A stretch of 64,000 nt of DNA from the IMG/VR virus record IMGVR_UViG_3300046786_000121, positions 1-64,000 of that record. One strand, 5' to 3'. A program made the translations under genes and the position numbers. Position 1 is the first letter of the stretch. Every line of letters starts with the position of its first letter. This DNA comes from a virus. Shown piece by piece: positions 14,701 to 58,837 of this stretch. Under the pieces are notes generated by a model, which saw nothing but the letters and a program-made list of their open reading frames with translations, searched no databases and was not told where the DNA came from.

Positions 14701-17700
14701 CTCCAAGTACAGCATGGGTAGCCGCAGCATTAGTAACAGCAAAATCATACTTGGATGCTGCAAAAACAACAGTACAATCAGATGCTGTACAATATATTAA
14801 GAGAGAGTATCCAACTCTAAACTTTAACACTACTACATGTTCGCGTGACGTAGGTTACATGGTTGATGCATTAGGATATGATCTAATGTTTGGTTCAAAC
14901 TTCTTATCCATCCAAAGCGGAATGGCTTATTATAGAGGTTTAGAAAGTACAGGTATTGTTTTAGCATCTCAGAAAACTGAAACAATTGCAATTATTGATT
15001 TTATTTCCAAGAAAGCATCGTATGCTGTTGCTAGTGGCGCAGTAGTACAAGCTGATAATCTATGGACCGATATCATCAATTATGCTAATACTGGAACACG
15101 TCCAATCATTGTTGGTACAAACACTCCTACAACAGATGTTGATATCATCAATGGTGGAAAAATTCTTGAACTTAACAAAGAGTTCATGGTTGCTGAAGCC
15201 ACAGCATATATTGCAAACACATTTAAAGCTACTGTAACAGCATCAACAGGTGCAACTGATACATTTACATGTGGATCACAGACTTGGATGGTTGCAGGAG
15301 ATGCTGTAGTATTCACTGGCACAACATTCGGTGGTGTTAATACAACAACAACCTATTATGTTTTAGCTAGCGGATTAACAGCTACAACATTTAAAGTTTC
15401 GACATCATTAGACAGCACAACACCAGTCGACTTATCAACAGCAACTGGAACAATGACTGTTAAGTATTCTTACAATCAAGCATCTTGCGAAAACGATGTA
15501 AGACATTATGTTGAAGCAATTTCATATGATTTGATGTACACAGGTAATTATCAATCTGTTACAGCAGCACGTTTCTACAGAAATGCCTTAACTGGTTCTA
15601 AACTAGAAGATTTCTACCTAGTAAGAAATGGTTGCGGTGTTCGTAATCAAACATTAACTGGACTAGATGGTACATCCGACGGTGATACCACAGGAGCAGG
15701 AGATGCAGACGGTCTAACTGTAGCAAATGAATATGGAACACAACGTCCATTAGCTGGCTCATATGTTTCATTAGATCCAGGTTGGGGACCAAACGATAAT
15801 AGAGTTTGGGTAACAACACGTTCTACATATGTACAAAACGTAACAACATTTGGTACAAGTTGTGTAGGACAGAAAATCGACGGCTCTTTACACGCAGGCG
15901 GACAAGATTCTATCGTTTCAAACGACTTTACTCAAGTATTGAGTAATGGTATTGGTGCGTGGATCACTAACTTAGGTCGTGCAGAACTTGTTTCTGTGTT
16001 TACATACTACAATCACATCGGCTATTTGGCTGAGAATGGTGGTAAGATTCGTGCTACTAACGGTAACAACTCTTACGGTACCTTTGGTTCTGTATCTGAA
16101 GGTATTGACGTTACAGAAACTGCAATCACTGGGCAGATTAACAATAGAAATACCGAAGCAGATGTTCGCCACGTTATTACAAACGGTAGCAACGTGTTAT
16201 TATACGAATTTGGTAATGCAGGTTCTGAATATGCAAGTGCTACATTTACCACTTCTGGTTCAGGAACAGGTGTTGCCACAGTAGCAAACGAGTTCCGTGA
16301 TGGCGCAGTATTCCAGGTTAGATTAACAGATCCAGGTGATTCATCTGGCCCTGGCGGTACTGGTTATGTTACTGCTGCTAACTTAGCACAAGCAGGAAAC
16401 ACAACTCAAATCACATTAGCTGCTGCTGATACAGCATCTAGCACAGCATATGTTGGAATGAGCATCTATGTTGTATCTGGTACAGGTGCAGGACAATACG
16501 GTTACATTAATACATACAATTCTGGTTCTAAGATTGCTACAGTTTATAAAGAGTCAACAGGAACAGCAGGTTGGGATCATGTAGTTCCAGGAACAGCTAT
16601 TGCTTCAGCACTAGATGTTACTTCTAGTTATGAAATTACACCTCGCTTATCATTCACTGCACCAGGATTTACTAAGTCCTTAGCTGATATGACTGTTAGT
16701 GCAGGATGGAGCAGCGTAGTTTATGGAGACGGTTACGGTGTTTACACTGGACTATCGGCTACTGGCGGATCTGGTTCATTGGCAACATTTAATGTAACAA
16801 GAAGAAATGGTGTTTACACTGTATCTATTCTTGCAGGCGGTGCATTATACACTACTGGAAACACATTAACTATTGTAGGAACTAGCTTAGGCGGAACAAC
16901 ACCAGCTAACGATTTAACAATCACTGTTGGTACAGTTTCTACACCAAGCGGTGCTATTCAAACTATTTCGTCAAGCGGAACAGCGGTTACTCCTAAGTAT
17001 GTTGCTGTTGCAAATGGATCTAGTACAGGTGCATATTCTTTAGATGGCATTACATGGACTACAATGACAATGCCAACAGCATCTGGTGATAAGTGGGTTG
17101 CTGTAACATACGGTGTTTATAATAGCATTGGACGTTATGTAGCAATTGCTAAAGATACGGCAGTTGCAGGTTATTCGTTAGATGGTATTACATGGTCTAC
17201 AGCAAGTGCAGGACAATCTGCAGACTGGGCAGACATTACTTACGGTAATGGTACCTTTGTTGCAGTAGCTACTACAACTTACAGAACAGTATCAAATGAC
17301 GGTGGCGCAACTTGGGCAGCTGGATCAGTTATGTCTGGTGCAAATTATGTTGCATACGGTGGTACACGATTTGTTGCAATTGCTCCTGGATTAACAAATT
17401 CAGCAGCATATAGTACTGCTGGTACATCTTGGACTACAGTAACTTTACCATCGAACGATGATTCGACTACATCCTCATGGAAAGGTCTAGCATACGGTAA
17501 TGGTAGATTTGTTGCAATTTCTGATAACTCTGGAATGGCAGCATATTCGTTAGACGGTGCAACCTGGACTAAGAGTAATCTTCCAGGCATCTACGAATGG
17601 AGCTCAATCGGATACGGTCAAGGTCTGTTCTACGCAACTACCTTAGGCGATATTGCAGCTAGCTCACCAGACGGTGTAACTTGGACAGTTCGTGATGGAT

Positions 17701-20024
17701 CTACAGCATCTATCAGTGTAACAACAACATCCAAAGATAAGATTGATGCCACATACACTGCAAGAACAATGCCAAATACAGCATACTGGACTGATGTGTT
17801 ATGGGATGGTAGCAAGTTTGTTGCAATCGGACACGATAACTCTGCAGGTGCGTTCTCTGCAACAAGTACAGACGGCGATAGCTGGACTGCACGTACATTG
17901 CCGAACGTTTCTGGATTCTACACTTATACAGCAATTGCTTATAACGGTACAAATCAATACATTGCTGCAATCGCTGGCACACGCCATATTGCAACAAGTA
18001 CTAACGGAACAAGCTGGACTGGCACAACTAACGCTGTTGCAACAGCAGGCGATTGGTCTGATGCAGTCTACGGTGGCGGAAAGTATGTATTTGTTAGCGG
18101 TTCGCAAAACAGAACAATGTACTCTACCGATGGCGTAACATGGATTAACGGTACAATTTCTGGATCTTATTCAGAATACACTGGAGTTGCCTACGGTCAA
18201 CCAGCTGCTACTGCTTACTATGTTGTTGTAACAGGTAGCACATCAACAAGTCAAGGTGCAGCTTACTCTACAGACGGTATTACATGGACAGCCGGTAACA
18301 CATTGCCAAGTGCAGATTACTGGAGTTCTGTAGCCTACGGTGGTGGTAGATTCGTAACTGTTGCTGGTAACACTGGTGCAGGAACATCTACAAAGGCAGC
18401 TTATAGCTCGAACGGAACAACATGGTCCGCAGCTACAATGCCAGGAGCAGCAGCTCGCTGGATTAAAGTAGTCTACGGCGGCGGTGGATTCACAGCATTT
18501 GCATATAACAGCAATAGAACTGCTTACTCAGCAGACGGTATTACTTGGGTTGAAGGTCCAACACTTTCATCCACAACTAACTGGTTTGCAGCAGCATATG
18601 GTAATAGCAAGAACGTTGCAATTGCAACAGGCGGAACTCCAGTTGCTGCTAGCGGAACATTTATTCTAAATACAAACTATCTAACAACAGCAAGTACAGC
18701 TTCGTTGAATGTTAACGATAGAATTAGATTTACTGGAACACGTTTCGGCGGTGTTGCTGATAGCACATATTACTTTGTTAAGAGTATTCCAAGCGCAACA
18801 GAGTTTACACTTTCTACATCTGCAGGTGGAAGCACCTTAGTACTAAGTACAGGAAGTGGCACAATGCCAGCGTTAGGAAGTAAGAGCTTCTCAGCTTCGG
18901 CACTTGGTAACTATCAAGGTTCTCCACGTTGGGTAGCAATAGCAACTAACAGCCAGGCAGCTCAGAATATTGTACAAGGTGCAAAAACAAGAGCTCGTGC
19001 TTATGTTAGTTCGAACCAAATTACAGAAATTTGGATTCACGAACCAGGTTCGGGATATTCATCTGCTCCAACTATGACAATCACTGATCCTAACAATACT
19101 GGTGCAGATGCAACTACACAAGTAAGATTAGGTAATGGTGCAATTGCACAACCAATGTTCACAAACAGAGGTGCTAACTATTCAGCAGCGGCTGCTGATA
19201 TTACCGGTGACGGATATGCAGATAACTATCAAGTTAGTGCATATGTTGGATTCAAGAATCTAACAGGTATTCCAAAAGCTGGTTCTAACGTACAACTTGC
19301 AGGAATCGACGATGTATGGTATAGATTGGTTAACGTAACTAACTTGTTACCAAACCAAGATGGTACATACAATGCTACATTGCAGATCAGTCCAGCACTA
19401 GGCGCAGCAGAAGCACCAGAGCATGAAACTGCTACAACAATTAGACGCAGATATAGTCAGGTTCGTTTAACCGGACATGACTTATTAGATATCGGTACAG
19501 GTGACTATGTTACTTCTAACTATCCAGGATTGCCGTTAACAGATCCAATTCCTGCTCAAGAGTATAAACAATCCAATGGTGGTCGTGTGTTCTACACAAG
19601 TACTGACCAAGATGGTAACTTTAGAGTTGGTGGACTGTTCAACGTTGAGCAATCAACTGGTGTTGCAACATTGAATGCTGACGCTTTCAACATTGCAGGT
19701 TTGAACGAGTTGAGTCTAGGTTCTGTTGCATTGGGCGGCGCAGGTGCTACGATTACTGAATTCAGTACAGATCCATTCTTTACACAGGATTCAGATAGCG
19801 TTATTCCTACGCAACGTGCGATTAAAGCGTACATTACCAGCCAAATTGGTGGAGGTGGTTCTAGTTTGAACGTAAATACCCTCACTGCCGGTGTGATTTA
19901 TGTCGCTGGGCAGACAATTGCTACAACTACAAATGTACAAATTAACATAAATACAAAGGTAAACTTCAAGGGCGGCATTGCTGGTGATGCACTTGTATTA
20001 AATTACTTTTTACTAAACAATTGA
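11772..20024 (+). CDS. Giant modular fibre protein, paralog of 6250..11709 with extra helical repeats and a second propeller
   Basis: 2750 aa; same MAEFKLGR start, 8 CBM-like repeats, 4 C-x-(R/N)-D helical repeats, two YS.DG.TW propellers, shared C-terminal GRVFYTSTDQDGNFRVG. Confidence 0.75.
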   Translation: MAEFKLGRIKFVWKNNWVTGQTYYKDDIVAYGGRTYLCVVGHTAAGDFYTDLDNVPTKWNQFSDGQAWKGDWTGTTLYKENDIVKYGGYVYICNNGHTSSATLEVNQDDWDLFAESFDWKTNWATGTTYKVNDLVKYGGLVYLCKTAHTSAATASLGLELDQSKWDLFSKGVDWKGTWGSTTRYKVGDLVKYGGVTYVANAGHNSQTYLEDDQSKWDYFNQGIEFQGTWTGTTRYKINDVVKNGGGTYICTANHTATTSFVSDYSNWAQFVEGVEFEGDWTSGNTYQPGDVVRYGGNSYIAKNAHVAGSTPPATPFDWDLFTTGFRLQGDWSSVVTYKVGEIVRNKGFTYVAISDSTNQKPPSAAWSLLNQGIDWEGNWTAASTYVLGDAVKYGPNSYICVQAHTATTGSDRPDNDITGTYWNLLTAGNEESVLTTNGDLVYYSGSGPTRLPIGDEGQVLTVESGLPTWKYFGKVKNVFYVAPHGTNTPAPTYGSTIDKPWASVRYACEQIENGTEYPNAAYLLKQNRTFIQREIYEWVTWNIANPSGIWTGFVNDNGAYCQRDMGLIVDAIIHDLTHTGNVKIIEATQTYFNAAGTALITAMQDEGPQLVAAVNYGVSLINSVLNNTAPASNYQTLNGIGSPTKQIIDSNYTAETDAADVCETLAAILTDAVTATTTVGLPTLDLPNYTINIKTGQYYEVLPIRVPANTAIVGDELRSARVSPRGKVVPTNDKAKTIATLTRLQSITDEIITNTSVTPTSGNTATQYTSLQKAGSTGSSTAVSSVVANAAEIKDIVTNGLGSADAYVYPDPTGYDTGYSNARRLILANKAFLVSEVSAWINAQISGNISPFVGFTYSGTRQTKCERDVGYIVDALVYDLTYGGNLATQIAARSYYSYGVFVEPTAEKAPALAVQARIKDIIDNIATGNTAGWTKTTGLSQDVSGTPGSAGAASFAQARIQEMYDTIDTGTEPTTIAPSTAWVAAALVTAKSYLDAAKTTVQSDAVQYIKREYPTLNFNTTTCSRDVGYMVDALGYDLMFGSNFLSIQSGMAYYRGLESTGIVLASQKTETIAIIDFISKKASYAVASGAVVQADNLWTDIINYANTGTRPIIVGTNTPTTDVDIINGGKILELNKEFMVAEATAYIANTFKATVTASTGATDTFTCGSQTWMVAGDAVVFTGTTFGGVNTTTTYYVLASGLTATTFKVSTSLDSTTPVDLSTATGTMTVKYSYNQASCENDVRHYVEAISYDLMYTGNYQSVTAARFYRNALTGSKLEDFYLVRNGCGVRNQTLTGLDGTSDGDTTGAGDADGLTVANEYGTQRPLAGSYVSLDPGWGPNDNRVWVTTRSTYVQNVTTFGTSCVGQKIDGSLHAGGQDSIVSNDFTQVLSNGIGAWITNLGRAELVSVFTYYNHIGYLAENGGKIRATNGNNSYGTFGSVSEGIDVTETAITGQINNRNTEADVRHVITNGSNVLLYEFGNAGSEYASATFTTSGSGTGVATVANEFRDGAVFQVRLTDPGDSSGPGGTGYVTAANLAQAGNTTQITLAAADTASSTAYVGMSIYVVSGTGAGQYGYINTYNSGSKIATVYKESTGTAGWDHVVPGTAIASALDVTSSYEITPRLSFTAPGFTKSLADMTVSAGWSSVVYGDGYGVYTGLSATGGSGSLATFNVTRRNGVYTVSILAGGALYTTGNTLTIVGTSLGGTTPANDLTITVGTVSTPSGAIQTISSSGTAVTPKYVAVANGSSTGAYSLDGITWTTMTMPTASGDKWVAVTYGVYNSIGRYVAIAKDTAVAGYSLDGITWSTASAGQSADWADITYGNGTFVAVATTTYRTVSNDGGATWAAGSVMSGANYVAYGGTRFVAIAPGLTNSAAYSTAGTSWTTVTLPSNDDSTTSSWKGLAYGNGRFVAISDNSGMAAYSLDGATWTKSNLPGIYEWSSIGYGQGLFYATTLGDIAASSPDGVTWTVRDGSTASISVTTTSKDKIDATYTARTMPNTAYWTDVLWDGSKFVAIGHDNSAGAFSATSTDGDSWTARTLPNVSGFYTYTAIAYNGTNQYIAAIAGTRHIATSTNGTSWTGTTNAVATAGDWSDAVYGGGKYVFVSGSQNRTMYSTDGVTWINGTISGSYSEYTGVAYGQPAATAYYVVVTGSTSTSQGAAYSTDGITWTAGNTLPSADYWSSVAYGGGRFVTVAGNTGAGTSTKAAYSSNGTTWSAATMPGAAARWIKVVYGGGGFTAFAYNSNRTAYSADGITWVEGPTLSSTTNWFAAAYGNSKNVAIATGGTPVAASGTFILNTNYLTTASTASLNVNDRIRFTGTRFGGVADSTYYFVKSIPSATEFTLSTSAGGSTLVLSTGSGTMPALGSKSFSASALGNYQGSPRWVAIATNSQAAQNIVQGAKTRARAYVSSNQITEIWIHEPGSGYSSAPTMTITDPNNTGADATTQVRLGNGAIAQPMFTNRGANYSAAAADITGDGYADNYQVSAYVGFKNLTGIPKAGSNVQLAGIDDVWYRLVNVTNLLPNQDGTYNATLQISPALGAAEAPEHETATTIRRRYSQVRLTGHDLLDIGTGDYVTSNYPGLPLTDPIPAQEYKQSNGGRVFYTSTDQDGNFRVGGLFNVEQSTGVATLNADAFNIAGLNELSLGSVALGGAGATITEFSTDPFFTQDSDSVIPTQRAIKAYITSQIGGGGSSLNVNTLTAGVIYVAGQTIATTTNVQININTKVNFKGGIAGDALVLNYFLLNN
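11805..13050 (+). repeat. 8 tandem CBM5/12-like repeats
   Basis: Eight W.G.W...Y...D.V.YGG..Y.C...H units. Confidence 0.65.
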
Positions 20025-20038: not shown

Positions 20039-20359
20039 ATGGCAACAGGATTATTAGGTCAAGCGGCCTTAACAGCAGCAACATATACCACCGTTTATAC
20101 CGTTCCAGTAACTACTTTTACCGTGATGTCTATTTCTGTGTGCAACAGAGGTACAACAACAGCAACGGTAAGAGTAGCACTAGCAGCGTCCGCAACCCCA
20201 ACTAATGCAGAATTCATTGAATATGATGCACCGATTGGATCGAATGGCGTTCTAGAAAGAACCGGTATTATGATGAATGCGGGTAAACTTTTAGTTGTCT
20301 ATACAAATAGTGCTAACGTATCTGTTAGCGCATTTGGTATAGAAACTTCTACAATATAA
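20039..20359 (+). CDS. Small virion adaptor-like protein
   Basis: 106 aa; ISVCNRG / IEYDAPI / TGIMM / VSVSAFGIE pattern. Confidence 0.55.
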   Translation: MATGLLGQAALTAATYTTVYTVPVTTFTVMSISVCNRGTTTATVRVALAASATPTNAEFIEYDAPIGSNGVLERTGIMMNAGKLLVVYTNSANVSVSAFGIETSTI

Positions 20360-20373
20360 GGGAGTAGATAAAA

Positions 20374-20700
20374 ATGGGAAGACAAGTATCATCCTTCGGA
20401 ACTGATAGTGTAACAAATAGAACGCTAACAACCAGTACAACAATTAATGCCGGCGAAAGAATTTTCGCTGACACAACTGCTGGAGCATTCACAATTACAT
20501 TACCAGCCAGTCCAGTAGCAGGTGACACTGTTCAAATTATTGACGTGGCAGGAATTTTTTCCACTAACAACGTAACAATTGGTAGAAATGGAAGCAAAAT
20601 TCAAAACTTGAGCGAAGACTTAATTTTGAATTTGAATAACGCTGCAATCACAATGATTTTTAGCGGTGCAACTTACGGCTGGGTCTTTGTTGGGCCTTAA
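20374..20700 (+). CDS. Tail-fibre domain protein (T4 gp34-type repeat)
   Basis: 108 aa; DTTAGAFTITLPASP.AGD.V.IID..G.F.TNNVTI.RNG...GW motif of T4-like long-fibre repeats. Confidence 0.6.
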   Translation: MGRQVSSFGTDSVTNRTLTTSTTINAGERIFADTTAGAFTITLPASPVAGDTVQIIDVAGIFSTNNVTIGRNGSKIQNLSEDLILNLNNAAITMIFSGATYGWVFVGP

Positions 20701-20713
20701 TTAGGAATATAAA

Positions 20714-21736
20714 ATGGCGAAACTTTCTGATCTACTATCCACTAGAGAGATCACCGCTTATCAGGAAAACTTACAAAAAGGTAAGATTTACACTGTTACG
20801 GGCATGGCAGGTATGTATGCTTGTATCAGATCCGACTCACAATGGTGTTGGAATTCACCGGGATGTGGAATAGCAGTGATAGAAACGTGGGGAGCCTCGG
20901 GTACAGGCTCTTGTAACTGTTGTTGCGGAGCTGGTCTCCCAGGCAACACAGGTGCATACTCAAAGAAAACAATTGCAGTAACACCTTGCAGTAACGTATT
21001 TGGACGTCCAGGCGTTGCATGTAACGGCTCAGGTCCAGGATTTTCCTTTGCAGGATGTTCCGAAGGCACCTGCGTTGTATGGCAAGATGCCAGAGACTTG
21101 CAGGGAAATACCAACGGTTGTATATGTTCACAAGGCGGTGCAGCAGGTAAATCTTGCTGTTTCGACGGTGGCAGTCCATACTGCTGCTTTGCTCTTGCTG
21201 GCTACTGTGCTACATTAATCTGTAACTGCTGCGGTATTATTTGTAATCATTGCCCTGGATTATTCTGGGCATGCGGCTACGGCGGCGACATTAACTGCTG
21301 CGGATGCTTCGGTAAAATGGAATTTAGAGGCGGACAACACATGTGTACATGTTACTTCGTTGAACTAGTACCATATGCACCACACGTCTTCTCAGAAGAA
21401 GGTGGTTGGTTGGCATTCCCGATTGAAAACGATCACGGCAATAGCAACTGGGCAGGAGCCGGAATGGGATCTGCTGCTCACGTATTAAATTCTACTTCTA
21501 AATCTCCTTCCGGTGGCCAACCATGGTCATCATGCTGGAGTGGATCTAGATTCTGTACATGTTACGAATCACATTCTTGTATGAATTTCATGCCATACGG
21601 TGTTGCAGGTACTGCGGCAACAGTATGTCCAGGTGTTAGAGACTCTGGTCGTCGAGGTGGTGCAGGTGCTATTAGAATTACATATAGAGGCACTAACGCA
21701 AACGGCGAAGTTCCACAAAGACTTGGAGACTTTTAA
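20714..21736 (+). CDS. Cys-rich glycine-rich-domain (gp38-adhesin-like) protein, paralog 1
   Basis: 340 aa, 34 Cys counted; IETWGASG ... GGAGAIRITY framing. Confidence 0.6.
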   Translation: MAKLSDLLSTREITAYQENLQKGKIYTVTGMAGMYACIRSDSQWCWNSPGCGIAVIETWGASGTGSCNCCCGAGLPGNTGAYSKKTIAVTPCSNVFGRPGVACNGSGPGFSFAGCSEGTCVVWQDARDLQGNTNGCICSQGGAAGKSCCFDGGSPYCCFALAGYCATLICNCCGIICNHCPGLFWACGYGGDINCCGCFGKMEFRGGQHMCTCYFVELVPYAPHVFSEEGGWLAFPIENDHGNSNWAGAGMGSAAHVLNSTSKSPSGGQPWSSCWSGSRFCTCYESHSCMNFMPYGVAGTAATVCPGVRDSGRRGGAGAIRITYRGTNANGEVPQRLGDF

Positions 21737-21738
21737 TT

Positions 21739-22938
21739 ATGGCATTATTAACACAATTACTGGGAAACAGAGAATTAGCTTGGGAAGACCAGTTAGAAAA
21801 AGGCCGTATTTGGGCTTATGGAGACGGAAACGAATACACACCATTGTGTAATGGTTTTTGTTTTAAGCCGCCTGGATGTGGAAAAGTAATTATTGAAATC
21901 TGGGGACCAGGCGGAAGTTCTGGACGCGGCTGCTGTTGCGGTAATGCTATGCCTAGTAATCCGGGCAGTTACACAAGAAAATGTATCTGCATGTGCCCAA
22001 CTAACTATATTTGTGGTTCGATCGGTCGTGCTTGCGGTGATACTCCTGCATATAGTAGAGGAGATACTGAACCAGTTCAAGTTTGTTGGACAGGTTGCGC
22101 TCCAAACCCATTATACGACGGTGGTTTAAATACTAGAGTTAGTTACAATTCATGGAAAGGAAATAATCCATGGGGTGTTGGCAACGGAGAAACACTAGGC
22201 GGAATCCAACAATGCGAAGCATTAGCTTGGAACAGACGTCCATCTGCAACTGGCGGTACAACTGCTATTTGTTGTGCGGCAGGCGCCCAATGCGGTTGTT
22301 TGTGCGCTCAAGGTGGTAAGTCTGGACAATTCTTATGTACAGACGGTGGTATGAGTACATTTAACTGTATGATGCAGTCTAGATATTGCTCAAAGACTAT
22401 CCATACTAGAAACGTATGTACACTATGGGCATGCGGTATTGTTTGTAACATTTGCGGTGATTCACAAATGCGTTATGACATGTGCGGCGTTAAATGTGCA
22501 TTCGGTGGTGATATGAACTGCTGCGGTTCATTCTCTTGCTTAAGAACATTCCAGTGCGCAAACAATAACCAAAGCTGTATGAATCAATACCAACAGGCAA
22601 CACCTGCAATGATGTATGCTACAGAAGGTGGTGTGTTTACATATCCGCATGATCACGATACTCCGGCATCACCAACATCAGGTGGTCCAGTTTTAGGTCA
22701 ATCATCTGGCTTACAAACACTATCTAGAGCTCCATCGCACATTCAAACAACATGGTGTTGGACTGGTGGTAGAGCATGTGGTTGTTACGAAATGTTTGGT
22801 TGCGTTCCTTGGGCTCCGGCAGGTATGGGCGGCTATCCAGCAAGTTCTTGCAGTGACGTTAGAGATCACGGTGGACGTGGTGGTATGGGCTTTGTAAGAA
22901 TCAAATATGTACCAACAGACGGAGGCAATACGTACTAA
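21739..22938 (+). CDS. Cys-rich glycine-rich-domain protein, paralog 2
   Basis: 399 aa, 38 Cys counted; IEIWGPGG ... GGMGFVRIKY. Confidence 0.6.
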   Translation: MALLTQLLGNRELAWEDQLEKGRIWAYGDGNEYTPLCNGFCFKPPGCGKVIIEIWGPGGSSGRGCCCGNAMPSNPGSYTRKCICMCPTNYICGSIGRACGDTPAYSRGDTEPVQVCWTGCAPNPLYDGGLNTRVSYNSWKGNNPWGVGNGETLGGIQQCEALAWNRRPSATGGTTAICCAAGAQCGCLCAQGGKSGQFLCTDGGMSTFNCMMQSRYCSKTIHTRNVCTLWACGIVCNICGDSQMRYDMCGVKCAFGGDMNCCGSFSCLRTFQCANNNQSCMNQYQQATPAMMYATEGGVFTYPHDHDTPASPTSGGPVLGQSSGLQTLSRAPSHIQTTWCWTGGRACGCYEMFGCVPWAPAGMGGYPASSCSDVRDHGGRGGMGFVRIKYVPTDGGNTY

Positions 22939-22939
22939 T

Positions 22940-23941
22940 ATGGCTAACTTAAAAACATTAGTTGAAACTAAACTCAACCAAATCGATACAGATGAGATCG
23001 GTTTAGAAAAAGGACAAATTACTACATTTGTCCCCTCAGGTTCTGCAGGTACACAATTTTATCCAAGCGGTATATTTTGTTGGGTTGCTCCAGGCACCGG
23101 TAAGGTAATTATCGATGTTTGGGGTGCAGGCGGTTCAAGTCCTTCTATTCGCTGCTGCGGTGTAGGACTTCCTGGCAATCCAGGTGCCTGGGCACGTAAA
23201 TGTATTTGCGTTGTAGCAGGTTGTCAAATCTGCGGACAAGTAGGTATAAGTTGTGGTAACCCAGAAACATTCTGTTTCAAAGGATGTTCTGAACCAACAC
23301 AAGTTTGCTGGACAGGTAAAAACAAAGACACAGGAGCTGCTGCAAACGGTTGTATTTGTGCTCAAGGCGGCCGCGGAGGTACAGCATATTGTGCTCCTGG
23401 TTCTGCTGCGGTATTCTGCTGTTTCCAAAGCGGTAACTTCTGTGTTACTGCATTGTCGAACGGTACTTGCGGTATTGTTTGTAACTACGGTAGCGGTACA
23501 GGATCATGCTGTGCAGAAGCATATGGTGGAGACATTAACAAGCGTGGTGGATTTAGCTGTGCTACATTCTGGACTTGCTACTCTAACTGCCCTTGTTCAA
23601 CACAAGCTCACGTTGCTATTCCTCCGGGCTTATTTGCTTGTGATGGTGCTGTAGTAACACACGGGTTTGAAGGTGATAGTGACTATTCACAGTGGAACGG
23701 ATCTGGATATCACCAGTTCATCTTCCAGTTAAATGCACTAAGTCGCACTCCTCTAAGAGGTCATCCATTAACTAGTTGCTGGGTTTCAAATAAATCATGT
23801 GGTTGCTATCAAATGCAAGCATGTATTCCGTTGTTCCCAACAGGAACTGGCGGCACAATGCCAACACCATGTGGCGATCACTGTAACTTTGGCTGGAGAG
23901 GCGGTTACGGTGCAGTTAGAATTAATTACATTCCGAGGTAA
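22940..23941 (+). CDS. Cys-rich glycine-rich-domain protein, paralog 3
   Basis: Start moved to ATG 22940 (MANLKTLV, matching the paralog N-termini). 333 aa, 32 Cys; IDVWGAGG ... GGYGAVRINY. Confidence 0.6.
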   Translation: MANLKTLVETKLNQIDTDEIGLEKGQITTFVPSGSAGTQFYPSGIFCWVAPGTGKVIIDVWGAGGSSPSIRCCGVGLPGNPGAWARKCICVVAGCQICGQVGISCGNPETFCFKGCSEPTQVCWTGKNKDTGAAANGCICAQGGRGGTAYCAPGSAAVFCCFQSGNFCVTALSNGTCGIVCNYGSGTGSCCAEAYGGDINKRGGFSCATFWTCYSNCPCSTQAHVAIPPGLFACDGAVVTHGFEGDSDYSQWNGSGYHQFIFQLNALSRTPLRGHPLTSCWVSNKSCGCYQMQACIPLFPTGTGGTMPTPCGDHCNFGWRGGYGAVRINYIPR

Positions 23942-23943
23942 AA

Positions 23944-24585
23944 ATGAAAAAGAAATTTGTACATCAATTACCGGATCAACCATATAAGCAATCTGCTAGT
24001 AAGAATATTACAGTAGAATGTGAATATGATGGTCCAAGATATTTGTTGTTAAGAATCAACGAAAAAACTGGTACAGTCTTAATGGCTGAACGCTATAGTA
24101 ATGATGAAGGTTTCTTAGAAACTACTATCGTTGACGACGGCGACGAGTTTGATTTCGTAGTATTAGATACAAACGATCATCCGTGGGAAGCAGCGTATAT
24201 TACGCATAGCTATACTCATGGTGAAGTTGCAGACTACGAAGAAACTCTACCAACAGGTGAAAAATATTCATATACATATCCAGACGGCACTGGCGTTATT
24301 GCAGCATGTCATGCGATTGAAGGATTAAAATATGATAAAAATTTAAAAGTTTATACTAAACCTAAGTTTTTAGTTCATCCAATTACTTCTGTTGATTTTT
24401 GGATTAGTAATGCTAATCAACTAGAGCAAATTGAAAGAGTTCTAGCTGGCGATCTTACTAACTTTACCGATGAAAGAATCACTGAAATTAGATCTTACAG
24501 AGATTATCTAGCAACTTTAAAAACGAAATACAACGGTGTTGATCACTGGAAGATTCCGTCTCCGAAGTATCCAGATCTAGGTTAA
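23944..24585 (+). CDS. Putative tail-fibre assembly chaperone
   Basis: 213 aa; C-terminal YRDYLATL...W.IP.P.YP resembles the YR..LRDLP...WP..P motif of phage tail assembly chaperones. Confidence 0.5.
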   Translation: MKKKFVHQLPDQPYKQSASKNITVECEYDGPRYLLLRINEKTGTVLMAERYSNDEGFLETTIVDDGDEFDFVVLDTNDHPWEAAYITHSYTHGEVADYEETLPTGEKYSYTYPDGTGVIAACHAIEGLKYDKNLKVYTKPKFLVHPITSVDFWISNANQLEQIERVLAGDLTNFTDERITEIRSYRDYLATLKTKYNGVDHWKIPSPKYPDLG

Positions 24586-24602
24586 TTCTTAATTTAACTC
24601 AG

Positions 24603-24656
24603 AATAGGCTTTGTGTTTATATCCGCGAGGATATATAGCAACACAAGGCCTATTTT
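24603..24656 (+). promoter_or_regulatory. Long bulged hairpin with GCGA tetraloop (attenuator, terminator or processing site)
   Basis: About 22-bp stem AATAGGCTTTGTGTTTATATCC / GGATATA-(TAGC)-AACACAAGGCCTATT, followed by a T-tract and the SD GGAG. Confidence 0.55.
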
Positions 24657-24668
24657 ATTGGAGTTTAA

Positions 24669-25604
24669 ATGACAAGATCTAAAGCGTTCTTTATTAACGG
24701 TGGAGCTGGCAGGATGATTTGCTCAATTCCTGCGTTTGAGAAATATGAAGAAGAATCCGGAGATAAGGATTTTATTATTGTATGCGAGGGTGGAACAGAT
24801 GTGTTCAAAGGTCACCCAAAGTTAGACCATAGAGTCTATGATATTTGGCACAAAAATTTGTTCCAAGAAAAGTTAAAAAACATGGATATTGTCACAACAG
24901 AACCTTACAGGATCTGGGAGTACTATACACAACAGTGCTCAATTGGACAAGCATTTGACATCCAACTAAACAATAAAGGTATTAGAGCACTACCTAAACC
25001 AACATTAAGTTTGTCAAAAGACGAATTATTAAATGGTAGATTTGTCATTAGTGAAGTTAAGAAAAAACTAAAAAAAGAAAAAGTTGTTGTGTTTCAACCA
25101 TTTGGCCGTGGTATTGAATACATTGACGAAACGCTTGTTGATAAGACTGGTAGAAGTTTTGAACTTAAAGATATTAAATCAATTATTAAAAAATTGCAAG
25201 ACAACGGTTATGCAGTTATCTTAATGAGTGAATTTAAAGTAGACTTGTCTGATGCCAAACTAAAAGACGAAGTAGCAACTCCTGAAAATACAAATATTAG
25301 AGTTTGGTCCGCAATTATCAAATATGCTGATCATTTCTTAGGCTGCGATAGTCTAGGACAACATCTTGCATATTCTGTAGGTACCCCAACAACAGTAGTA
25401 ACTGGAGCAACATATCCAATCAACGTAAGCTATCCTGATACAGAAGGTGTTGAAGTATTAGATATGGGTGAAGTTGATAGAGAATATAGTCCTATTAGAA
25501 TTACAATGGACGAACGCATCGACAGAAAGAATGAAAAATTAATGACGATGAATGAAGAGATAACTAAATTAATCGTAAATTACGTTTTAGGGAAAAAAGA
25601 ATGA
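24669..25604 (+). CDS. GT-B glycosyltransferase, GT9 (heptosyltransferase)-like
   Basis: 311 aa; GGAGRMICSIPA N-terminus, VVFQPFG, IIKYADHFLGCDSLGQHLAYSVGTPT matching GT9 FIG.DSG..HLA.A.G.P. Confidence 0.7.
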   Translation: MTRSKAFFINGGAGRMICSIPAFEKYEEESGDKDFIIVCEGGTDVFKGHPKLDHRVYDIWHKNLFQEKLKNMDIVTTEPYRIWEYYTQQCSIGQAFDIQLNNKGIRALPKPTLSLSKDELLNGRFVISEVKKKLKKEKVVVFQPFGRGIEYIDETLVDKTGRSFELKDIKSIIKKLQDNGYAVILMSEFKVDLSDAKLKDEVATPENTNIRVWSAIIKYADHFLGCDSLGQHLAYSVGTPTTVVTGATYPINVSYPDTEGVEVLDMGEVDREYSPIRITMDERIDRKNEKLMTMNEEITKLIVNYVLGKKE

Positions 25605-27427
25605 CAGTAACTTCAGTTAAGAAAAATAACAAAAAACCAGTATGGATTGCTGGTATTGCTCGCGGGCATAATGCTGGCATTTGCTTGCTAAAAGACGGAG
25701 AGATTGTTTTCTCTATCGAAGAAGAACGCCTAAGTCGTCAAAAGTATGACGGTGGTCCTCTAGCATCTATGGTTAAGATTCTAGAATATACAGATAAAAT
25801 TGATTATCTAGTAATTGCGCATACACAGTCTATCTACGAAACTGCTGGTAAAGTTGACTATTCTGGAGATGATATGTATACAGCCCTAGCAAGAAAGCTA
25901 GGACTAATTAGCAGAAAAGTAAAAGATCCCCATCGCCATCCGCAGGTAATTGATGTAAGTCACGTTCACCATAAATTACATGCTGCCTGTGCTTTCTATC
26001 GTAGTGGTTGGGAAGATGCAGTTGCTCTAATTGTTGACGGTGCTGGTACATTCTTTCCGTTTAGCGTAAATGAATCTCACGTATGGTATTGGGAAGTAGA
26101 ATCAATTATTGATTGTGCATACCCTGCTGAATTTAAAACAGTTCGTAAACATTACGGTACTAGAGATCCGTTGCCTGCTGCATATTTGCCAGAATTTTCG
26201 TCAGATATGTTAGGTGAACAAGGTAGTACACACGAAGCATGGATGACTGATCGTGCTGGTATTGTTAAAGTCTATGAAGGTGTCACAGAGTACTGTGGCT
26301 TCTCATCCATCGAAGCGGGTAAAACTATGGGACTATTCCCCTACGGTAAACCTAACGACAAGATTCCACCGTTGTTTGATAAAATCGGTGATACGTCTTT
26401 CTCAAATAGAAACTTATTTGTCCCAAGATACCCATCGGGAAGCACTGTTAATACAGCCCTAGTAGAATTTTTAGATACTAATGCTGGGCCAGACGAAGAC
26501 ATTACTTTGTTGGAAAATCGTAGAGATTTAGCATATGCTTGCCAAACACAATCGCAAGATGAAGTTGTAAAACTAATCAAAATGGCTGTAGAAAAGTCTG
26601 GTAAGAAGCGTGTTGTTATCAGTGGCGGCTATGGATTAAACTGTGTTGCTAACTATCATTATTTGAAAGAGTTAGAAGGCACAGGTATTGAGATTTATGT
26701 TGAGCCAATTTCGAATGATGCAGGTACTGCTATGGGTGCAGCATTGATGTTCTGGCATAGCATGTATAACGATAACACCATTAGACCGTATGGTTCACTA
26801 TATCTAGGTCCAGTACATACCTATACAGATTCTCAAATTTCTGAAAAGGTAGCAGCAGTTGAAGGTGCAACTGTAGTTGATGCCACACACAAAGATATTG
26901 TAGCTTTGTTACGCAACAAAAAAATCGTTACAATGTTCCAAGGACGCAGCGAAAATGGACCACGTGCATTGGGTAATCGAAGCGTATTGTTCAATCCTAC
27001 ATACGAAGATGGTAAAGATTACGTAAACGAAGTTAAGCGTAGAGAGTATTTCCGTCCGTTTGCAGGTACAATCTTGCAAGATGATGTCCATGACTGGTTT
27101 GATCTACGTGGTAAAGAAGACAGCCCACACATGATGTATGCTGTAAATTGTAAAGAAGGTGTTGCTGAAAAGATTCCTTCAATTATTCACGTTGACGGAT
27201 CTTGTAGAATTCAAACTGTTACACAAGAACAGAACAAACACTACTACGATTTAATCAAAGCATTTAAGGACGAAACGGGTATTCCGATGTTGTTTAACAC
27301 TAGCTTTAACCTAGGCGGCGAGCCTTTAGTTGAAACGCTAGATGATGCAATTTGGACCCTGGAACAGTCGGATATAGAATACTTGTATTTGCCAGAATAC
27401 GGTAAGCTAATTACGATTCCTAACTAA
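25601..27427 (+). CDS. Carbamoyltransferase, NodU/CmcH/TobZ family
   Basis: 608 aa; EEERLSRQK, HHKLHA, DGAG, GKTMGL.PYG, SGGYGLNCVAN, DAGTAMGAA, GRSENGPRALGNRS, KRRE.FRPFA, HVDGSCRIQTV, NTSFN..GEP. Confidence 0.95.
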   Translation: MTVTSVKKNNKKPVWIAGIARGHNAGICLLKDGEIVFSIEEERLSRQKYDGGPLASMVKILEYTDKIDYLVIAHTQSIYETAGKVDYSGDDMYTALARKLGLISRKVKDPHRHPQVIDVSHVHHKLHAACAFYRSGWEDAVALIVDGAGTFFPFSVNESHVWYWEVESIIDCAYPAEFKTVRKHYGTRDPLPAAYLPEFSSDMLGEQGSTHEAWMTDRAGIVKVYEGVTEYCGFSSIEAGKTMGLFPYGKPNDKIPPLFDKIGDTSFSNRNLFVPRYPSGSTVNTALVEFLDTNAGPDEDITLLENRRDLAYACQTQSQDEVVKLIKMAVEKSGKKRVVISGGYGLNCVANYHYLKELEGTGIEIYVEPISNDAGTAMGAALMFWHSMYNDNTIRPYGSLYLGPVHTYTDSQISEKVAAVEGATVVDATHKDIVALLRNKKIVTMFQGRSENGPRALGNRSVLFNPTYEDGKDYVNEVKRREYFRPFAGTILQDDVHDWFDLRGKEDSPHMMYAVNCKEGVAEKIPSIIHVDGSCRIQTVTQEQNKHYYDLIKAFKDETGIPMLFNTSFNLGGEPLVETLDDAIWTLEQSDIEYLYLPEYGKLITIPN

Positions 27428-27428
27428 T

Positions 27429-27452
27429 AAAAGCCCCATAAGGGGCTTTTTT
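27429..27452 (+). terminator. Rho-independent terminator
   Basis: AAAAGCCCC-ATAA-GGGGCTTTTTT. Confidence 0.85.
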
Positions 27453-27474: not shown

Positions 27475-27912
27475 ATGCTAAATTTTGCTAAATTCTTCTT
27501 CCAAGGTATTAAAAATACTCTCCGTGTACAAAACGGTGTAAACTTTGCCTACAAAGGTCCGTGGCAAAGCGTTATCGGCGACACTGTTATCGACGAGTGG
27601 TACCTGGGCGATTTTATGGCAGCGGAATATACCATAGTAATTGATGTGGGAAACACTAGAAAAGAGATGGTCAAATGTTTGCTGATTGCAGGTCCGGAAC
27701 AAGCAAACGTAACAATCTACGGTAGAACTAACCTCAATGAAAATCTAATAGATCTTACTGCTACAGTAAATGCATCAAAAGTACAACTAGTTGCACATCC
27801 TGCTTCTAGCCCTACAGATAGCACCTACGATAATTCGTCTTTACTCGTAGGATCTAAACTAATATTCAGCGCAAATTACTATCACACGATTAATGATCTC
27901 ACATCATACTAA
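27475..27912 (+). CDS. Putative virion structural protein
   Basis: 145 aa, beta-rich, late promoter upstream. Confidence 0.5.
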   Translation: MLNFAKFFFQGIKNTLRVQNGVNFAYKGPWQSVIGDTVIDEWYLGDFMAAEYTIVIDVGNTRKEMVKCLLIAGPEQANVTIYGRTNLNENLIDLTATVNASKVQLVAHPASSPTDSTYDNSSLLVGSKLIFSANYYHTINDLTSY

Positions 27913-27924
27913 CTTCTTAGCCCG

Positions 27925-27932
27925 TATAAATA
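27925..27932 (+). promoter_or_regulatory. Perfect T4 late promoter TATAAATA
   Basis: Exact consensus in an intergenic region. Confidence 0.7.
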
Positions 27933-27984
27933 TAGATATACAGTCTTTGTAGAAGTCGAAGTTGGAAGAATAGCGGAGATCTAA

Positions 27985-28581
27985 ATGTCAGTCAGATACA
28001 TACCTTTTGAGTCTAAAAGCGGTTTTAAAAGTCCGGGATTCCTAGCGGACGAAGCAGGCAACGTTACAGTGCAGTCGTTAACCGTGGCTGGAGCAAACGG
28101 TGCTATTATTAGAGCTGACGAGCTTTATATTCAAGAAATCCAAATACTAGAAGGATCACATTTAGATTCTTCGTTGGTTGCACTAGGAAGTCAAATTATT
28201 GGAAGTTCTCTAAAAATATTAGGAGAATTAGATTTTTTAAATGTTGCAGGAGACACTCGTCTTGGCAATGTCCTAAGCCCTTCTATAACTATTGTTGACG
28301 GACAAGTTACTGTTAATAGTATTGAAGTCGGTTCTATAGATAATGTAGATATTGGTTTACAAACTCCCGGAGCAGCAGCATTTACAACAGCGGATGTTGG
28401 TGTCGGTGGTTTAAATGTAGAAGGTGATGTAGATGTTACGTTAGACTTGACAGTTGGCGGAACAACTACAATGGGCGGCGATTTAGCATTGGCAAATACT
28501 CCAACTGCTAGCAATCACGCTACTAGAAAAGATTATGTTGACGCAAGAGTTAGTGCGTTTGCAATTGCGTTCGGCGCATAA
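27985..28581 (+). CDS. Fibre-type structural protein
   Basis: 198 aa; PTASNHATRKDYVD motif; C-terminal AFAIAFGA. Confidence 0.6.
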   Translation: MSVRYIPFESKSGFKSPGFLADEAGNVTVQSLTVAGANGAIIRADELYIQEIQILEGSHLDSSLVALGSQIIGSSLKILGELDFLNVAGDTRLGNVLSPSITIVDGQVTVNSIEVGSIDNVDIGLQTPGAAAFTTADVGVGGLNVEGDVDVTLDLTVGGTTTMGGDLALANTPTASNHATRKDYVDARVSAFAIAFGA

Positions 28582-28593: not shown

Positions 28594-31500
28594 ATGGCTA
28601 AGAAACAGATAAAAAAATATGTATTTGAACCCGGTGTTAGTAAAGATGATAATTTACTACCGAATGCCGTTGCATTATTGATTGCTAACAAAGCATTCTT
28701 GCAAGCACAGGTTGTAGCATTTATCAATGATCAGATTGCTAACGATATTGCACCGTATGAGGGATATACATATGCATCGTCTAAATGTTCTAGAGATGTT
28801 GGGTATTTCATTGATGCTGTTATAAACGACTTACGTTATGGCGGTAATGTTAAATGTAGACAAGTTGCAGATTACTTTTGGATCGACGGTGAACCGCAAA
28901 TTAGAGGAGATGTTAGTCCAGAAATTACAGGACAAGCATATCTAAGAGATGTCATTAATAATTTTATCTTTACTAATACAACAGTAACACCAGCATATGG
29001 ACAGGTTGCAATTCAACAAGTAAAGTATGTAGGATCTGATGCAGAACCAACTGCATCAAGCAGAAACACTTCATTGTGGAGTGTGTTTAGTACAGTTATC
29101 TCTCAAGGCACACCATATATGCCTGCAAAGATTCCTGGAGTCAGTTCTTTAAGATTGATTGGTAAATATGATCCTACTGAAATTTTGTTAATTACTAACA
29201 CAAATACAGGACAAATTCTTTACAATTTTGCTGACGAAAATAATTCGTTAACAGTTGAATATAAAACAGGACGTAGTAGCGGTGACGGTGAATTATTAAG
29301 TGATGTTGATTTTGTTCACTGGTGGCATACTTCCGATACTATCACTACAGTTAAACTTTCTGTAGATACTAGCACATTACAATCATCCGCTGATATTCAA
29401 ATATTCGTTGAAGAACCAAGCCAACAAATTCGTCCATGGGAATTTGGAACGGACGCTATTGAACGTATGCGTGTTGCACAGCCACAGGCCATGCTTGACG
29501 CGGACTTTGAATACGGACTACAGCCAACTAAGTGGCAAGCTCTTGGTTTGATTCGCGGATATCCAAGTATCTTTGAAATTCCAGGTACTGATTTATCTGT
29601 AGTTTCTATTACTACTGATGCATCTTCTAACACAGGTTACTTTGGTTCTTCTTTAATTACTGTTACAACTTCTGGTACACACGGATTTTCAGCACAACAA
29701 CCGATTACAGTTAAAGGCTTATCTGCCTCAGTTGGAGGATTTGCAAGAGCTGAAGGTTCTTTCTTAGTCTATAGTGTTCCTAGTTCAGTAAGTTTTACAT
29801 ATTACGCCAGTGCTAAAGTTGGAACATTAGCAGGTGAAAGTTTATATACATCGTTTGTACAAGTTAGACAGGCTGGATTTTATACCGGTGCATCAATTGG
29901 ACAGCCAACATTTTCTGTGTACAGCAATGGAACAAATTTAAACATTCTATCGAAATTTGATACTACAGTTGGTGCGTTTACTATTGCATTTGATGGTACA
30001 GCCCCAACACCGGGTAGTCCTATTTCTGGTAGTCCTGCGTTTACAGCAGGTACATCTGTATCTGGTGTTGTTGGTACTACTACTGTATCTGCACACGTTA
30101 AGAATACTGTTGAATCAGCAACAGACACTTCTATTACTGTAGTTGACACTACTGGTATTCAGCAGTCTATGGCATTAGAAAGTTATACAGGAACTGCACT
30201 ATTCGTTAACTCATTAGCTGGTAATACATTATATTTGTCCGGACAATTGGGTCAAACCTTTGTAGGAGCCAACGGTACTAATACTGGGGTAAGCGGAACG
30301 AATATTCAAGGTACTGGAGTTGGGGCAACATTCAATGTTTCTAGATCTGCAGGAGCATATACGATTACTGATTCCGGAGATAGTGCATCAAACGGACAAA
30401 ACTACGCAGTTGGTGACAGAATCGTAATTGCTGGTACTGATCTTGGCGGAGCTTCACCTACTAATGATGTTATTCTTGCTGTTACAGGAGTTGACAGCGG
30501 TGGATCTATCACTGCATTTAACCATACTGGGACTTCGATTACCGGTGGCGGAACATATACAGCAGTACCACAATCACTTAGTGATAACATCGGTATTGGC
30601 GCAACCATAACTGTTGTTCGAGAAGGTGGAACAGGTGCTTATACTATTTCATTAGTTGATGGTGGTAGTGATCATGCTCAAGGTGATACTGTAACATGGT
30701 ATGGTACTAGCTTTGGTGGTTCAAGTCCAGCAAATGATATTGTTATTCAAGTTGATGGCGTAACAGCCGGAGCAATTGTTGATTATACTATTATTGGCAC
30801 ACCAGTCGGCGATACTGGCAATGCGGCATATACATCGGTTGCAGGTACAAATCAAACAGTATCAGGAACATCTGCGGTATTTACAGTTACAAGAACAGAT
30901 GGTTTATATTCAGCAGTTGCTACATCGGGTGGCACTGGTTATCAAACTGGTAATAGAATTTTAATCTCTGGAAATGATCTTGATGGAACATCGCCAATCA
31001 ATGATTGTATTTTAACAGTAACCGGAACTAATGGCGATGCTATTAATTTACTTACTGCTTCTGGAACACCTTACGACGGTGATACAATAACTGTATACCC
31101 TACACTAACAATCAGTGAAGCATTAAACACTTCGTTGGCAGATGGATCTACACTAAACGTTGGTGCTATTCCGACAATTCAAGTAGACTTTAATTCTAAT
31201 CACGGTCTAGTACCGGGCACCACAATATTAACAAGTATCTCATCTACCCCAGCACCGGGCTTCACAGCAACAAATCGAACATTATCAGCAACTGGTTCTT
31301 GGACTGGTGTGTCTTTTGCAGGTGGAACATGGGTTGCTGTAAAATCAGGTAGCACTGATTCTGCTAGATCGATTGACGGACAAACTTGGTCCGCTGGAGG
31401 TGCATTACCATCTAGTACAACATGGACATCAACAGCATCTGGATCAATAGGCGGTACTGTTTATCATGTTGCTATCGCAAGTGGCGGTACAGCAGCAGCA

Positions 31501-38709: not shown

Positions 38710-38716
38710 AGTCATA

Positions 38717-38737: not shown

Positions 38738-38742
38738 ACAGT

Positions 38743-58820: not shown

Positions 58821-58837
58821 AAGTATCCTATTTTAAA

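Follow-up and report, generated by a model that had tools for sequence, protein, structure and literature searches.

The first 64 kb of the 95.8-kb IMG/VR virus record IMGVR_UViG_3300046786_000121 (CheckV completeness 27%), referred to here as the window, carry on the plus strand a single block of genes, 20039-27450, that appears to combine the distal part of a tail fibre with its own tailoring enzymes. Within this cassette three cysteine (Cys)-rich paralogs of a fibre-tip type and a small protein in the position of a chaperone are followed by a divergent GT9-fold glycosyltransferase (GT) and a carbamoyltransferase (CT) of the NodU/CmcH/TobZ family. The module is real, widespread and uncharacterised, and is best described as a variant of the phage virion-glycosylation systems that is placed on new Cys-rich tips with a glycine-rich-domain fold. 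The reading preferred here, with a probability of about one half, is that a protein of the fibre module is heptosylated and that the added sugar is then O-carbamoylated, with gene linkage pointing to the fibre tips or another virion protein as the putative acceptor. A preliminary description of this DNA had already proposed that the phage modifies its own tips, a proposal that is favoured by the tip fold, the synteny, the shared late block and the heptose-nucleotide genes of relatives, whilst its further suggestion that Cys itself may be carbamoylated is disfavoured. The genes and elements that it named are all present where it had placed them.

Linkage across relatives

The same order of genes recurs in all scorable relatives, and for this reason the arrangement is far from chance. 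With the GT as anchor 58 IMG/VR loci of 60-86% identity were gathered (~22 clusters at 85%), the three Cys-rich genes and the 213-amino acid (aa) gene that follows them being present in all 51 loci with enough upstream DNA, and the CT lying immediately 3' of the GT in 55 of the 55 that could be scored. With the Cys-rich family as anchor, a search from a 15-sequence alignment gave 80 loci, of which 11 were too short to score; the GT is present in 52 of the remaining 69, and the other 17, all from one marine clade, hold a 'solo' Cys-rich copy of 318 aa. The family tree makes this solo copy a duplicate of paralog 1, two further giant fibre genes come directly downstream of it (L128:10001-10957, L126, L122 and 14 other loci), and the full cassette is found 22-26 kb away in all five loci whose contig extends far enough. 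The preliminary description had put forward the synteny of the Cys-rich trio, GT9 and NodU genes in related phages as a check of its proposal, and this is strongly upheld from both directions.

The cassette is also found in cultured phages. The isolates S-CAM1, S-CAM3, P-SSM2, S-SSM7 and Sf-FS3, from different genera of the Kyanoviridae, have a collinear cassette (T4-GC 296-308 in P-SSM2 and S-SSM7) which consists of a fibre gene, p106, p108, two or three proteins of 8-12% Cys, a protein of ~230 aa, the GT and the CT, with identity to the window of 43-55% for the GT and 48-61% for the CT. They differ from the window in that their ADP-heptose genes directly follow the CT, these genes being 12-96 kb away in the lineage of the window and none being found on this fragment, in that the window belongs to a lineage of ~350 kb whose relatives lack psbA, and in that the GT of the window lacks ~70 C-terminal residues found in the isolates' orthologues. 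In public metagenomes 3187 homologues of the GT were obtained at E <= 0.001.

Among 185,579 prokaryote genomes that were scanned there was no cellular orthologue of the GT, all nine matches being mis-binned phage contigs of this same family. Identity of the GT in these contigs goes down to 37%, seven and a partial eighth have a Cys-rich gene beside the GT-CT pair, and the ninth is an 894-bp fragment with parts of the GT and CT only. In the contig with 37% identity the tips are replaced by a protein of 1257 aa (L165:4115-7888) with 126 Cys (10%) along its whole length and a glycine-rich-domain C-terminus, its gene being directly before the GT-CT pair and a convergent RfaE-like heptose operon. 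This contig was binned as Polynucleobacter, and others of the set L157-L165 as Neomarinimicrobiota (a 335-kb contig), Methanobacteriota, Chitinophagales, Crocinitomicaceae, Flavobacterium and Yoonia; their placement in metagenome-assembled genomes is almost certainly a binning error and is not evidence of host.

Minor variations on the cassette also occur. Some relatives have a second GT9 paralog after the CT (L051, L055, L148, L150, L151 and L158), an unassigned gene of 287 aa lies between the GT and CT in L106, L127 and L140, and in L107 a 2-oxoglutarate (2OG)-Fe(II) oxygenase gene directly follows the CT.

Fibre-tip proteins and their neighbours

The three paralogs are encoded at 20714-21736 (340 aa, 34 Cys, phrog_4205), 21739-22938 (399 aa, 38 Cys, with a ~60-aa insertion, assigned by paralogy and the family tree) and 22940-23941 (333 aa, 32 Cys, assigned by its AlphaFold model and fold matches). 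For the third, the start at 22940 used in the preliminary description is the homologous one, the longest open reading frame beginning at 22907. They are composed of 9.5-10% Cys and 16% glycine (Gly), many of the Cys and Gly columns being invariant, and share 35-43% identity among themselves and with the copies of relatives. A sequence search of PDB gave no match for the family and none of 15 members had a Pfam match at E <= 1, and a HMMER scan of 1.84 billion representatives found just 229 Cys-rich relatives, nearly all of them stand-alone proteins of 320-350 aa.

The AlphaFold model of paralog 3 (pLDDT 88.4 from an 83-sequence alignment) has a predicted N-terminal helix, residues 4-15, which is followed by a TNF-like and glycine-rich-domain fold. 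It matches the fibre gp24 of phage Pam3 (7ypx_A) with a Z of 14.9 and a root mean square deviation of 3.2 A over 191 residues (VIA), the tail-tip protein of mycobacteriophage Bxb1 with a Z of 11.8 and the glycine-rich domains of ALK/LTK with a Z of 8-10, all other structural matches being below Z 4.3. Matches within BFVD are to viral proteins of glycine-rich-domain or collagen-like type, among which are the orthologues of S-CAM3 and P-SSM2 and gp38 of Syn9. Pam3 gp24 is a receptor-binding fibre with an N-terminal docking helix and a TNF-like and glycine-rich head, it is folded by the chaperone gp25, and the gp25 gene is directly downstream of gp24 (PDB 7ypx, 7yfw; PMC9608196). As the layout of docking helix, TNF-like domain and head rich in glycine is the same in both, the model indicates that the Cys-rich proteins are fibre tips of the receptor-binding type, in which cysteines would fill much of the glycine lattice. 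The three adhesins proposed in the preliminary description are thus supported by fold.

The likeness to Pam3 extends to the place of the tip as a distal receptor-binding element and to a small gene in the chaperone position directly downstream, but there are also clear differences. Here ~10% Cys replaces much of the Gly and the tips are not detected by PF21722, there are three conserved paralogs rather than one fibre gene, the 213-aa protein has no detectable similarity to gp25, and no GT or CT is linked to the Pam3 fibre. A glycine-rich-domain fold that is rebuilt with ~10% cysteine is structurally interesting in itself. When compared using hhalign with the PF21722-positive proteins of cyanophages that have no GT, the Cys-rich family had a probability of 0.2 and no similarity, and it is a separate sequence family from PF21722. 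In the family tree the large phages mostly have orthologous copies at each of positions 1, 2 and 3, with the position-1 orthologues in clades of their own; on this phylogeny the three copies are old and non-redundant, and they could form one heterotrimer or three distinct tips.

Two small proteins precede the tips. The first, p106 (20039-20359; phrog_11338 tail fiber, E 1.2e-9), has 50-54% identity in blastp searches to 106-aa genes at the same position in S-CAM1, S-CAM3 and P-SSM2, and its domain is repeated within a 380-504-aa 'tail fiber protein' of S-CAM1 and P-SSM2. The second, p108 (20374-20700), is an adaptor domain of gp34/gp10 type with matches to 17 PHROG families whose proteins belong to the tail, the fibre or the baseplate connector, among them phrog_972 'tail fiber protein proximal subunit' (E 2.9e-13), in keeping with the gp34-type fibre domain noted in the preliminary description. 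Whilst free-standing here, in S-SSM7 and Sf-FS3 it is fused C-terminally as residues 1386-1472 of fibres of 1477 aa (blastp), and because it forms the C-terminus of these fibres p108 is taken to be part of the distal end of the fibre.

The 213-aa protein (23944-24585; phrog_9740, function unknown) is indeed behind the tips, although the label of chaperone that it was given earlier derives from its position and from weak leads only. Its profile has no match in PDB and it has no Pfam or NCBIfam assignment, only one of 26 family members matched Caudo_TAP (E 0.018), and the tail-assembly-chaperone leads in the ESM Atlas are all weak with scores below 0.9. Its gene always comes after Cys-rich genes, with a copy number that tracks the pairs of Cys-rich and chaperone-position genes in relatives, and in divergent relatives the layouts Cys-rich, chaperone, Cys-rich, Cys-rich, chaperone or Cys-rich, chaperone, Cys-rich, chaperone are seen. 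The position after the tips and these layouts fit with a dedicated partner or chaperone of the tips, which is the role we infer for it.

Glycosyltransferase and carbamoyltransferase

The GT (24669-25604) matches phrog_8954 (E 8e-138) and is presumed to be ADP-heptose-dependent. Against the Pfam GT9 family (PF01075) it scores 17.0 bits where the cut-off is 22, with residues 171-252 only being aligned, and some relatives of ~80% identity have precomputed PF01075 and the name 'ADP-heptose:LPS heptosyltransferase' (LPS being lipopolysaccharide). A search of PDB with the GT profile gave two chance matches only, therefore the family assignment rests on the fold. The AlphaFold model (pLDDT 80, pTM 0.84) is a two-Rossmann GT-B fold, for which GT9 structures occupy Foldseek ranks 1-17 and 29 (3tov at E 1e-10, 1psw, 4rap/4rb4, 2h1f/2gt1, 6dfe) and the unrelated 9grx is at rank 25. 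The structures matched include the Veillonella GT9 3tov, WaaF 1psw, TibC 4rap and WaaC, with the likeness to TibC at the level of fold (TM ~0.58). The GT9-like enzyme of the preliminary description is hence confirmed by its fold, though under the Pfam cut-off. The motif GCDSLGQHLA at residues 225-234 is invariant in 23 relatives and fits what we take to be the C-terminal nucleotide-sugar motif of WaaC/WaaF, D(S/T)GxxH(L/I)A, and within the N-terminal motif NGGAGR Arg15 is nearly invariant.

The CT gene (25601-27427) shares an ATGA overlap with that of the GT at 25601-25604, as had been described. Both Pfam domains are well above their cut-offs, Carbam_trans_C (PF16861) with E 3.2e-58 and 196.5 bits against 27 and Carbam_trans_N (PF02543) with E 7.7e-29 and 101.6 bits against 24, and the protein matches phrog_1601 (E 2e-166). 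The translation holds the motifs HHKLH, VDGAG, NDAGTA, GPRALGNRS and NTSFN, which are the metal- and nucleotide-binding signatures of the TobZ literature. On its sequence the CT is a full-length, intact O-carbamoyltransferase of the NodU/CmcH/TobZ family, and since it scores 153.9 bits against the NodU equivalog NF041651, far below the cut-off of 1000, it is a member of the family and no orthologue of NodU.

The CT is also tied to fibre proteins in a second architecture. P-RSM4, S-TIM4, S-SSM5, S-CAM8 and S-MS29 have no GT9 gene, they have an orthologous full-length CT (37-39% identity) that converges on and overlaps the 3' end of the gene for a glycine-rich protein of 387-393 aa which closes the fibre module. 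This partner contains 30-33% Gly and 0-2 Cys and is above the cut-off of PF21722 (Gly_rich_2), its family is found in exactly the 12 records of these phages, and the CT is convergent in 12 of 12. On the other side of the CT there are four or five 2OG-Fe(II) oxygenases (P-RSM4, L154:5995-8769; S-CAM8, L153; S-MS29, L156). This arrangement strengthens the apparent tie of the CT to glycine-rich-domain fibre proteins.

Sugar supply

Directly behind the CT the isolates have genes for an adenylyltransferase of the HldE type, for a PfkB kinase and GmhA, and for a cupin and an epimerase. The large-phage lineage has a kinase (PfkB), a cytidylyltransferase-like adenylyltransferase, a cupin, a HAD phosphatase and an epimerase, which are found ~12 kb downstream in three relatives (G002-G004) and 96 kb from the cassette in the closest complete relative (G001). 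With P-SSM2 GmhA as query there was no match in the record itself or in four relatives, these lineages having the cupin and HAD phosphatase instead. From these distances it is apparent that in a broken block it is the sugar-nucleotide genes that move, the GT and CT remaining beside the tips.

Proposed pathway and precedents

It might be envisaged that late in infection the tips would be folded or trimerised with the help of the 213-aa protein, as gp25 does for Pam3 gp24, and that in the cytoplasm the GT9-fold enzyme would attach heptose to one of the fibre-module proteins, the neighbouring tips being the simplest choice. As donor it would use a phage-made sugar nucleotide of the ADP-heptose type. 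The CT, in the manner of NodU/TobZ enzymes, would then use carbamoyl phosphate and ATP to O-carbamoylate a hydroxyl on the added sugar, to give a product resembling the 7-O-carbamoyl-heptose of the Pseudomonas LPS core. That the GT is active with ADP-heptose and that the CT acts on the added sugar are suggested by family, linkage and precedent. The decoration may alter the receptor-binding surface, or it may protect the tips against proteases, aggregation on cell debris or decoys of the host, although this is speculative.

The GT9 enzymes TibC and AAH heptosylate adhesins (TibA and AIDA-I), they are cytoplasmic, ADP-heptose-dependent and encoded beside the adhesin that is their target, and it is the GT9 fold that the phage enzyme has in common with them. 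Unlike these enzymes the GT scores 15 bits where TIGR04414 requires 200, there is no evidence here of an iron finger or a dodecamer, the acceptor is putative, and the phage system adds a CT. The pairing of a GT9 heptosyltransferase with a NodU-family CT is that of the core pathway of Pseudomonas, where WaaC/WaaF are accompanied by WapO (PA5005), the 7-O-carbamoyltransferase of Hep II (PMC8005017), and this likeness predicts a carbamoyl-heptose product. It differs in that the acceptor in Pseudomonas is the lipid A-Kdo core, while here the genes are within a virion fibre operon and the GT is without a cellular orthologue in the genomes scanned. As for phages, mycobacteriophages have glycosyltransferases of their own which modify their own virion proteins (Freeman et al. 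2023, cited in PMC12619734); going by the account in PMC12619734 these belong to other GT families and act on the C-termini of capsid and tail-tube proteins, with no link there to heptose, carbamoylation or receptor tips.

If the tips are the target, then this would be an enzymatic modification of receptor-binding proteins that is encoded by the phage and combines heptosylation with O-carbamoylation, and if true there would be a layer of host range or virion protection that is invisible to sequence-based host prediction. The cassette is abundant and is found in both marine cyanomyoviruses and aquatic phages of ~350 kb, this reading of it reassigns genes long labelled as 'LPS genes' or 'hypothetical', and cultured carriers exist in the five isolates above.

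Points against and alternative explanations

A number of points weigh against a heptosylated and carbamoylated fibre protein. The GT is below every curated threshold for GT9, RfaQ, heptosyltransferase III and TibC, and it has G-R where GT9 enzymes presumably have G-D with the catalytic Asp, a comparison made at the level of the motif; due to the sub-threshold scores and the Arg at this position both its activity and its donor are assumed. The phages without a GT keep the CT beside a fibre protein, thus the CT does not always depend on a sugar added by a GT9 enzyme. Distant CT paralogs are also found elsewhere: in ACG-2014d a CT-family gene of 499 aa lies between the genes for the major capsid protein and gp3, another virion-module context (L168:4497-5996), S-RIM44, S-SCSM1 and Sf-FP1 have split paralogs beside a gene for thymidylate synthase, and a paralog of HTVC008M is part of a glycan cluster, so that the CT family as a whole is not fibre-specific. 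The many loci are phylogenetically non-independent, as the ~22 GT clusters at 85% identity show, and genes inside a structural region that is conserved can be passed on together, synteny included. Heptose genes were not found on the 95.8-kb fragment, which fits with where it ends because the spacing in relatives would place them past this point, and the literature reads such genes as 'LPS genes' of unknown use (PMC3037559). Finally, no published virion proteome was found for a phage with the cassette, the proteomics of Sullivan et al. 2010 being of S-SM1, S-PM2 and Syn9 only, in none of which the cassette was seen.

The alternative that best survives, serious and plausible though less probable than the fibre reading, is that the enzymes remodel the envelope of the host, with carbamoyl-heptose being put onto the LPS core or a surface glycan of the infected cell and the adjacency to fibre genes being historical. 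Such remodelling could block superinfection or prevent the adsorption of progeny to debris. Apart from TibC/AAH, the cellular GT9 enzymes that have been characterised all act on LPS cores, and the closest chemistry, the carbamoylation of Hep II in the Pseudomonas core by WapO, is LPS chemistry (PMC8005017). The heptose genes next to the pair (T4-GC 304-308) count as LPS genes in Sullivan et al. 2010 (PMC3037559), S-SM2 has these genes without this GT or CT, and both the window and HTVC008M have separate glycan clusters. However, in the scorable loci the GT-CT pair is never apart from the fibre-tip genes whilst the sugar-nucleotide genes do move, the pair is inside a block that runs from late promoter to terminator together with structural genes, and no cellular homologue of the GT was found in the prokaryote genomes scanned. 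In addition, changes to LPS that are made late would presumably be slow to arrive at the surface of a lytic host.

Direct carbamoylation of the tips, either on Cys thiols or on hydroxyls made by a 2OG-Fe(II) oxygenase and with a separate role for the GT, seems improbable compared with modification of an added sugar. It has in its favour that in two architectures, of which one has no GT9 gene, the CT adjoins a fibre protein with a glycine-rich domain, and that 2OG-Fe(II)/P4H-like oxygenases are found in or beside the cassette of S-SSM7, Sf-FS3 and L107 as well as next to the CT where there is no GT. There is no oxygenase in the cassette of the window, and carbamoylation of proteins has no known precedent in the CT family, in which NodU, NolO, CmcH and TobZ carbamoylate sugar hydroxyls and the 5-hydroxymethylcytosine enzyme a hydroxymethyl group. 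The HypF-like modification of Cys put forward in the preliminary description is disfavoured, as the CT scores a negligible 20.8 bits against HypF (TIGR00143, cut-off 466) with the Kae1-like subdomain only aligned, and it presumably lacks the acylphosphatase and Zn-finger domains specific to HypF. Furthermore, because the partners of the CT in phages without a GT have 0-2 Cys, a thiol cannot be its shared target, and carbamoylation of cysteine as a general mechanism is rejected.

There is a further variant in which cysteine is the point of attachment of the sugar. The GT9-like enzyme pairs strictly with Cys-rich tips, and where it is absent the glycine-rich partners are Cys-poor, a pairing that may reflect chemistry rather than shared descent. 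The enzyme also has Arg in the place of the presumed catalytic Asp of GT9. It could be imagined that the GT S-heptosylates the cysteines of the tips and that the sugar is then carbamoylated, giving an adhesin covered in S-linked carbamoyl-heptose, but this is a long shot.

A phage enzyme of the same Pfam family as the CT carbamoylates 5-hydroxymethylcytosine (5hmC) in DNA and in dCTP, in a system that co-occurs with a ThyA-like hydroxymethylase (PF00303), whereas the CTs on contigs that were unmodified are flanked by glycosyltransferases (PMC8670742). Searches with PF00303 gave no match in the record itself, nor in any of four relatives of which two are 98-100% complete, the same search matching 10 of 14 control genomes; the preliminary description had held that a hydroxymethylase elsewhere in the genome would point to DNA as the substrate, and no ThyA-family gene is present in the relatives that are 98% and 100% complete. 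That the CT makes bases of the 5-carbamoyloxymethylcytosine type, as this MetaGPA enzyme does, is hence very improbable despite the shared family and the split paralogs next to thymidylate synthase, for the near-complete relatives lack the hydroxymethylase, it is the unmodified contigs that have glycosyltransferase neighbours, and the CT is translationally coupled to a GT9-fold enzyme within a fibre operon.

Gene block, hairpin and flanks

Between the 213-aa gene and the GT there is a gap of 83 nt with a long hairpin (minimum free energy -33.2 kcal/mol, z -8.6), the conserved element at 24596-24665 consisting of the hairpin, a U-tract and the Shine-Dalgarno sequence of the GT. Despite turnover of sequence, 32 of 34 distinct relatives retain the hairpin (fold <= -28 kcal/mol), and of 14 consensus pairs 10 have compensatory changes. 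Its 3' internal loop holds a conserved TATATAAT-like box (TATATA(A/G)), with the U-tract and the ribosome-binding site of the GT after it. Lying between the structural genes and those for the enzymes, the hairpin probably serves as a partial terminator or as a site of processing for some of the transcript; together with the U-tract it would keep enzyme transcripts below structural transcripts, and the enzymes may be made in lower amounts than the structural proteins.

The block as a whole has an ATAAATA box before it (19947-19953), resembling a late promoter and ~86 nt 5' of the first cassette gene, and a clean intrinsic terminator after it (27429-27450) with a 9-bp stem that includes 5 GC pairs, a 4-nt loop and a TTATTTT tail. 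There are eight ATAAATA boxes in the window where 22.9 would be expected by chance, and these depleted boxes (11736, 19947, 27461, 27926, 38731, 44773, 50760 and 58860) are all on the plus strand just 5' of gene starts, which is consistent with late promoters of the T4 type. With a box at 19947 and the next ones only after the terminator, 20039-27427 looks like one late unit.

Upstream is a giant tail-fibre protein of 2750 aa (11772-20024; phrog_9851 tail fiber protein, E 5.1e-186) with its own ATAAATA box at 11736. Past the terminator are the conserved small fibre-module genes p145 and p198 (27475-28581), which have the boxes at 27461 and 27926 and are fused to larger proteins in some relatives, followed by a giant virion structural protein of 2151 aa (28594-35049; phrog_5838, E 1.5e-234). 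A general glycan cluster lies ~30 kb downstream at 57016-64000. All of these genes are, like the block, on the plus strand as far as p145, p198 and the two giant genes are concerned, and the terminator, the giant fibre-type flanks and the distant glycan cluster agree with what had been described.

Source virus

The fibre module is, by homology of its genes, clearly related to that of the marine Kyanoviridae. The source virus itself is a T4-like aquatic jumbo phage, and a genome of ~350 kb is given for it because the relatives with the cassette that are near-complete, G001 and G002 (rated 98-100% complete), reach 353 and 364 kb. No psbA was found in either of these two genomes, for which reason it is not called a cyanophage, and the host of the lineage is not evidently a cyanobacterium despite the module being like that of cyanomyoviruses. 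A megablast of the 8-kb cassette region against the phage collection gave no match, nor did tblastn with a Cys-rich protein, probably owing to the low-complexity filter, and the module is not mentioned in a paper on aquatic jumbo phages or in one on a broad-host cyanomyovirus. The hallmarks of T4 within the window are gp32, UvsX/RecA, gp15 and a dNMP kinase. The gp15-like tail-sheath stabiliser (540 aa) and a protein of 477 aa that adjoins it, at 35705-38760 on the minus strand, have weak C-terminal matches to CBM_5/12.

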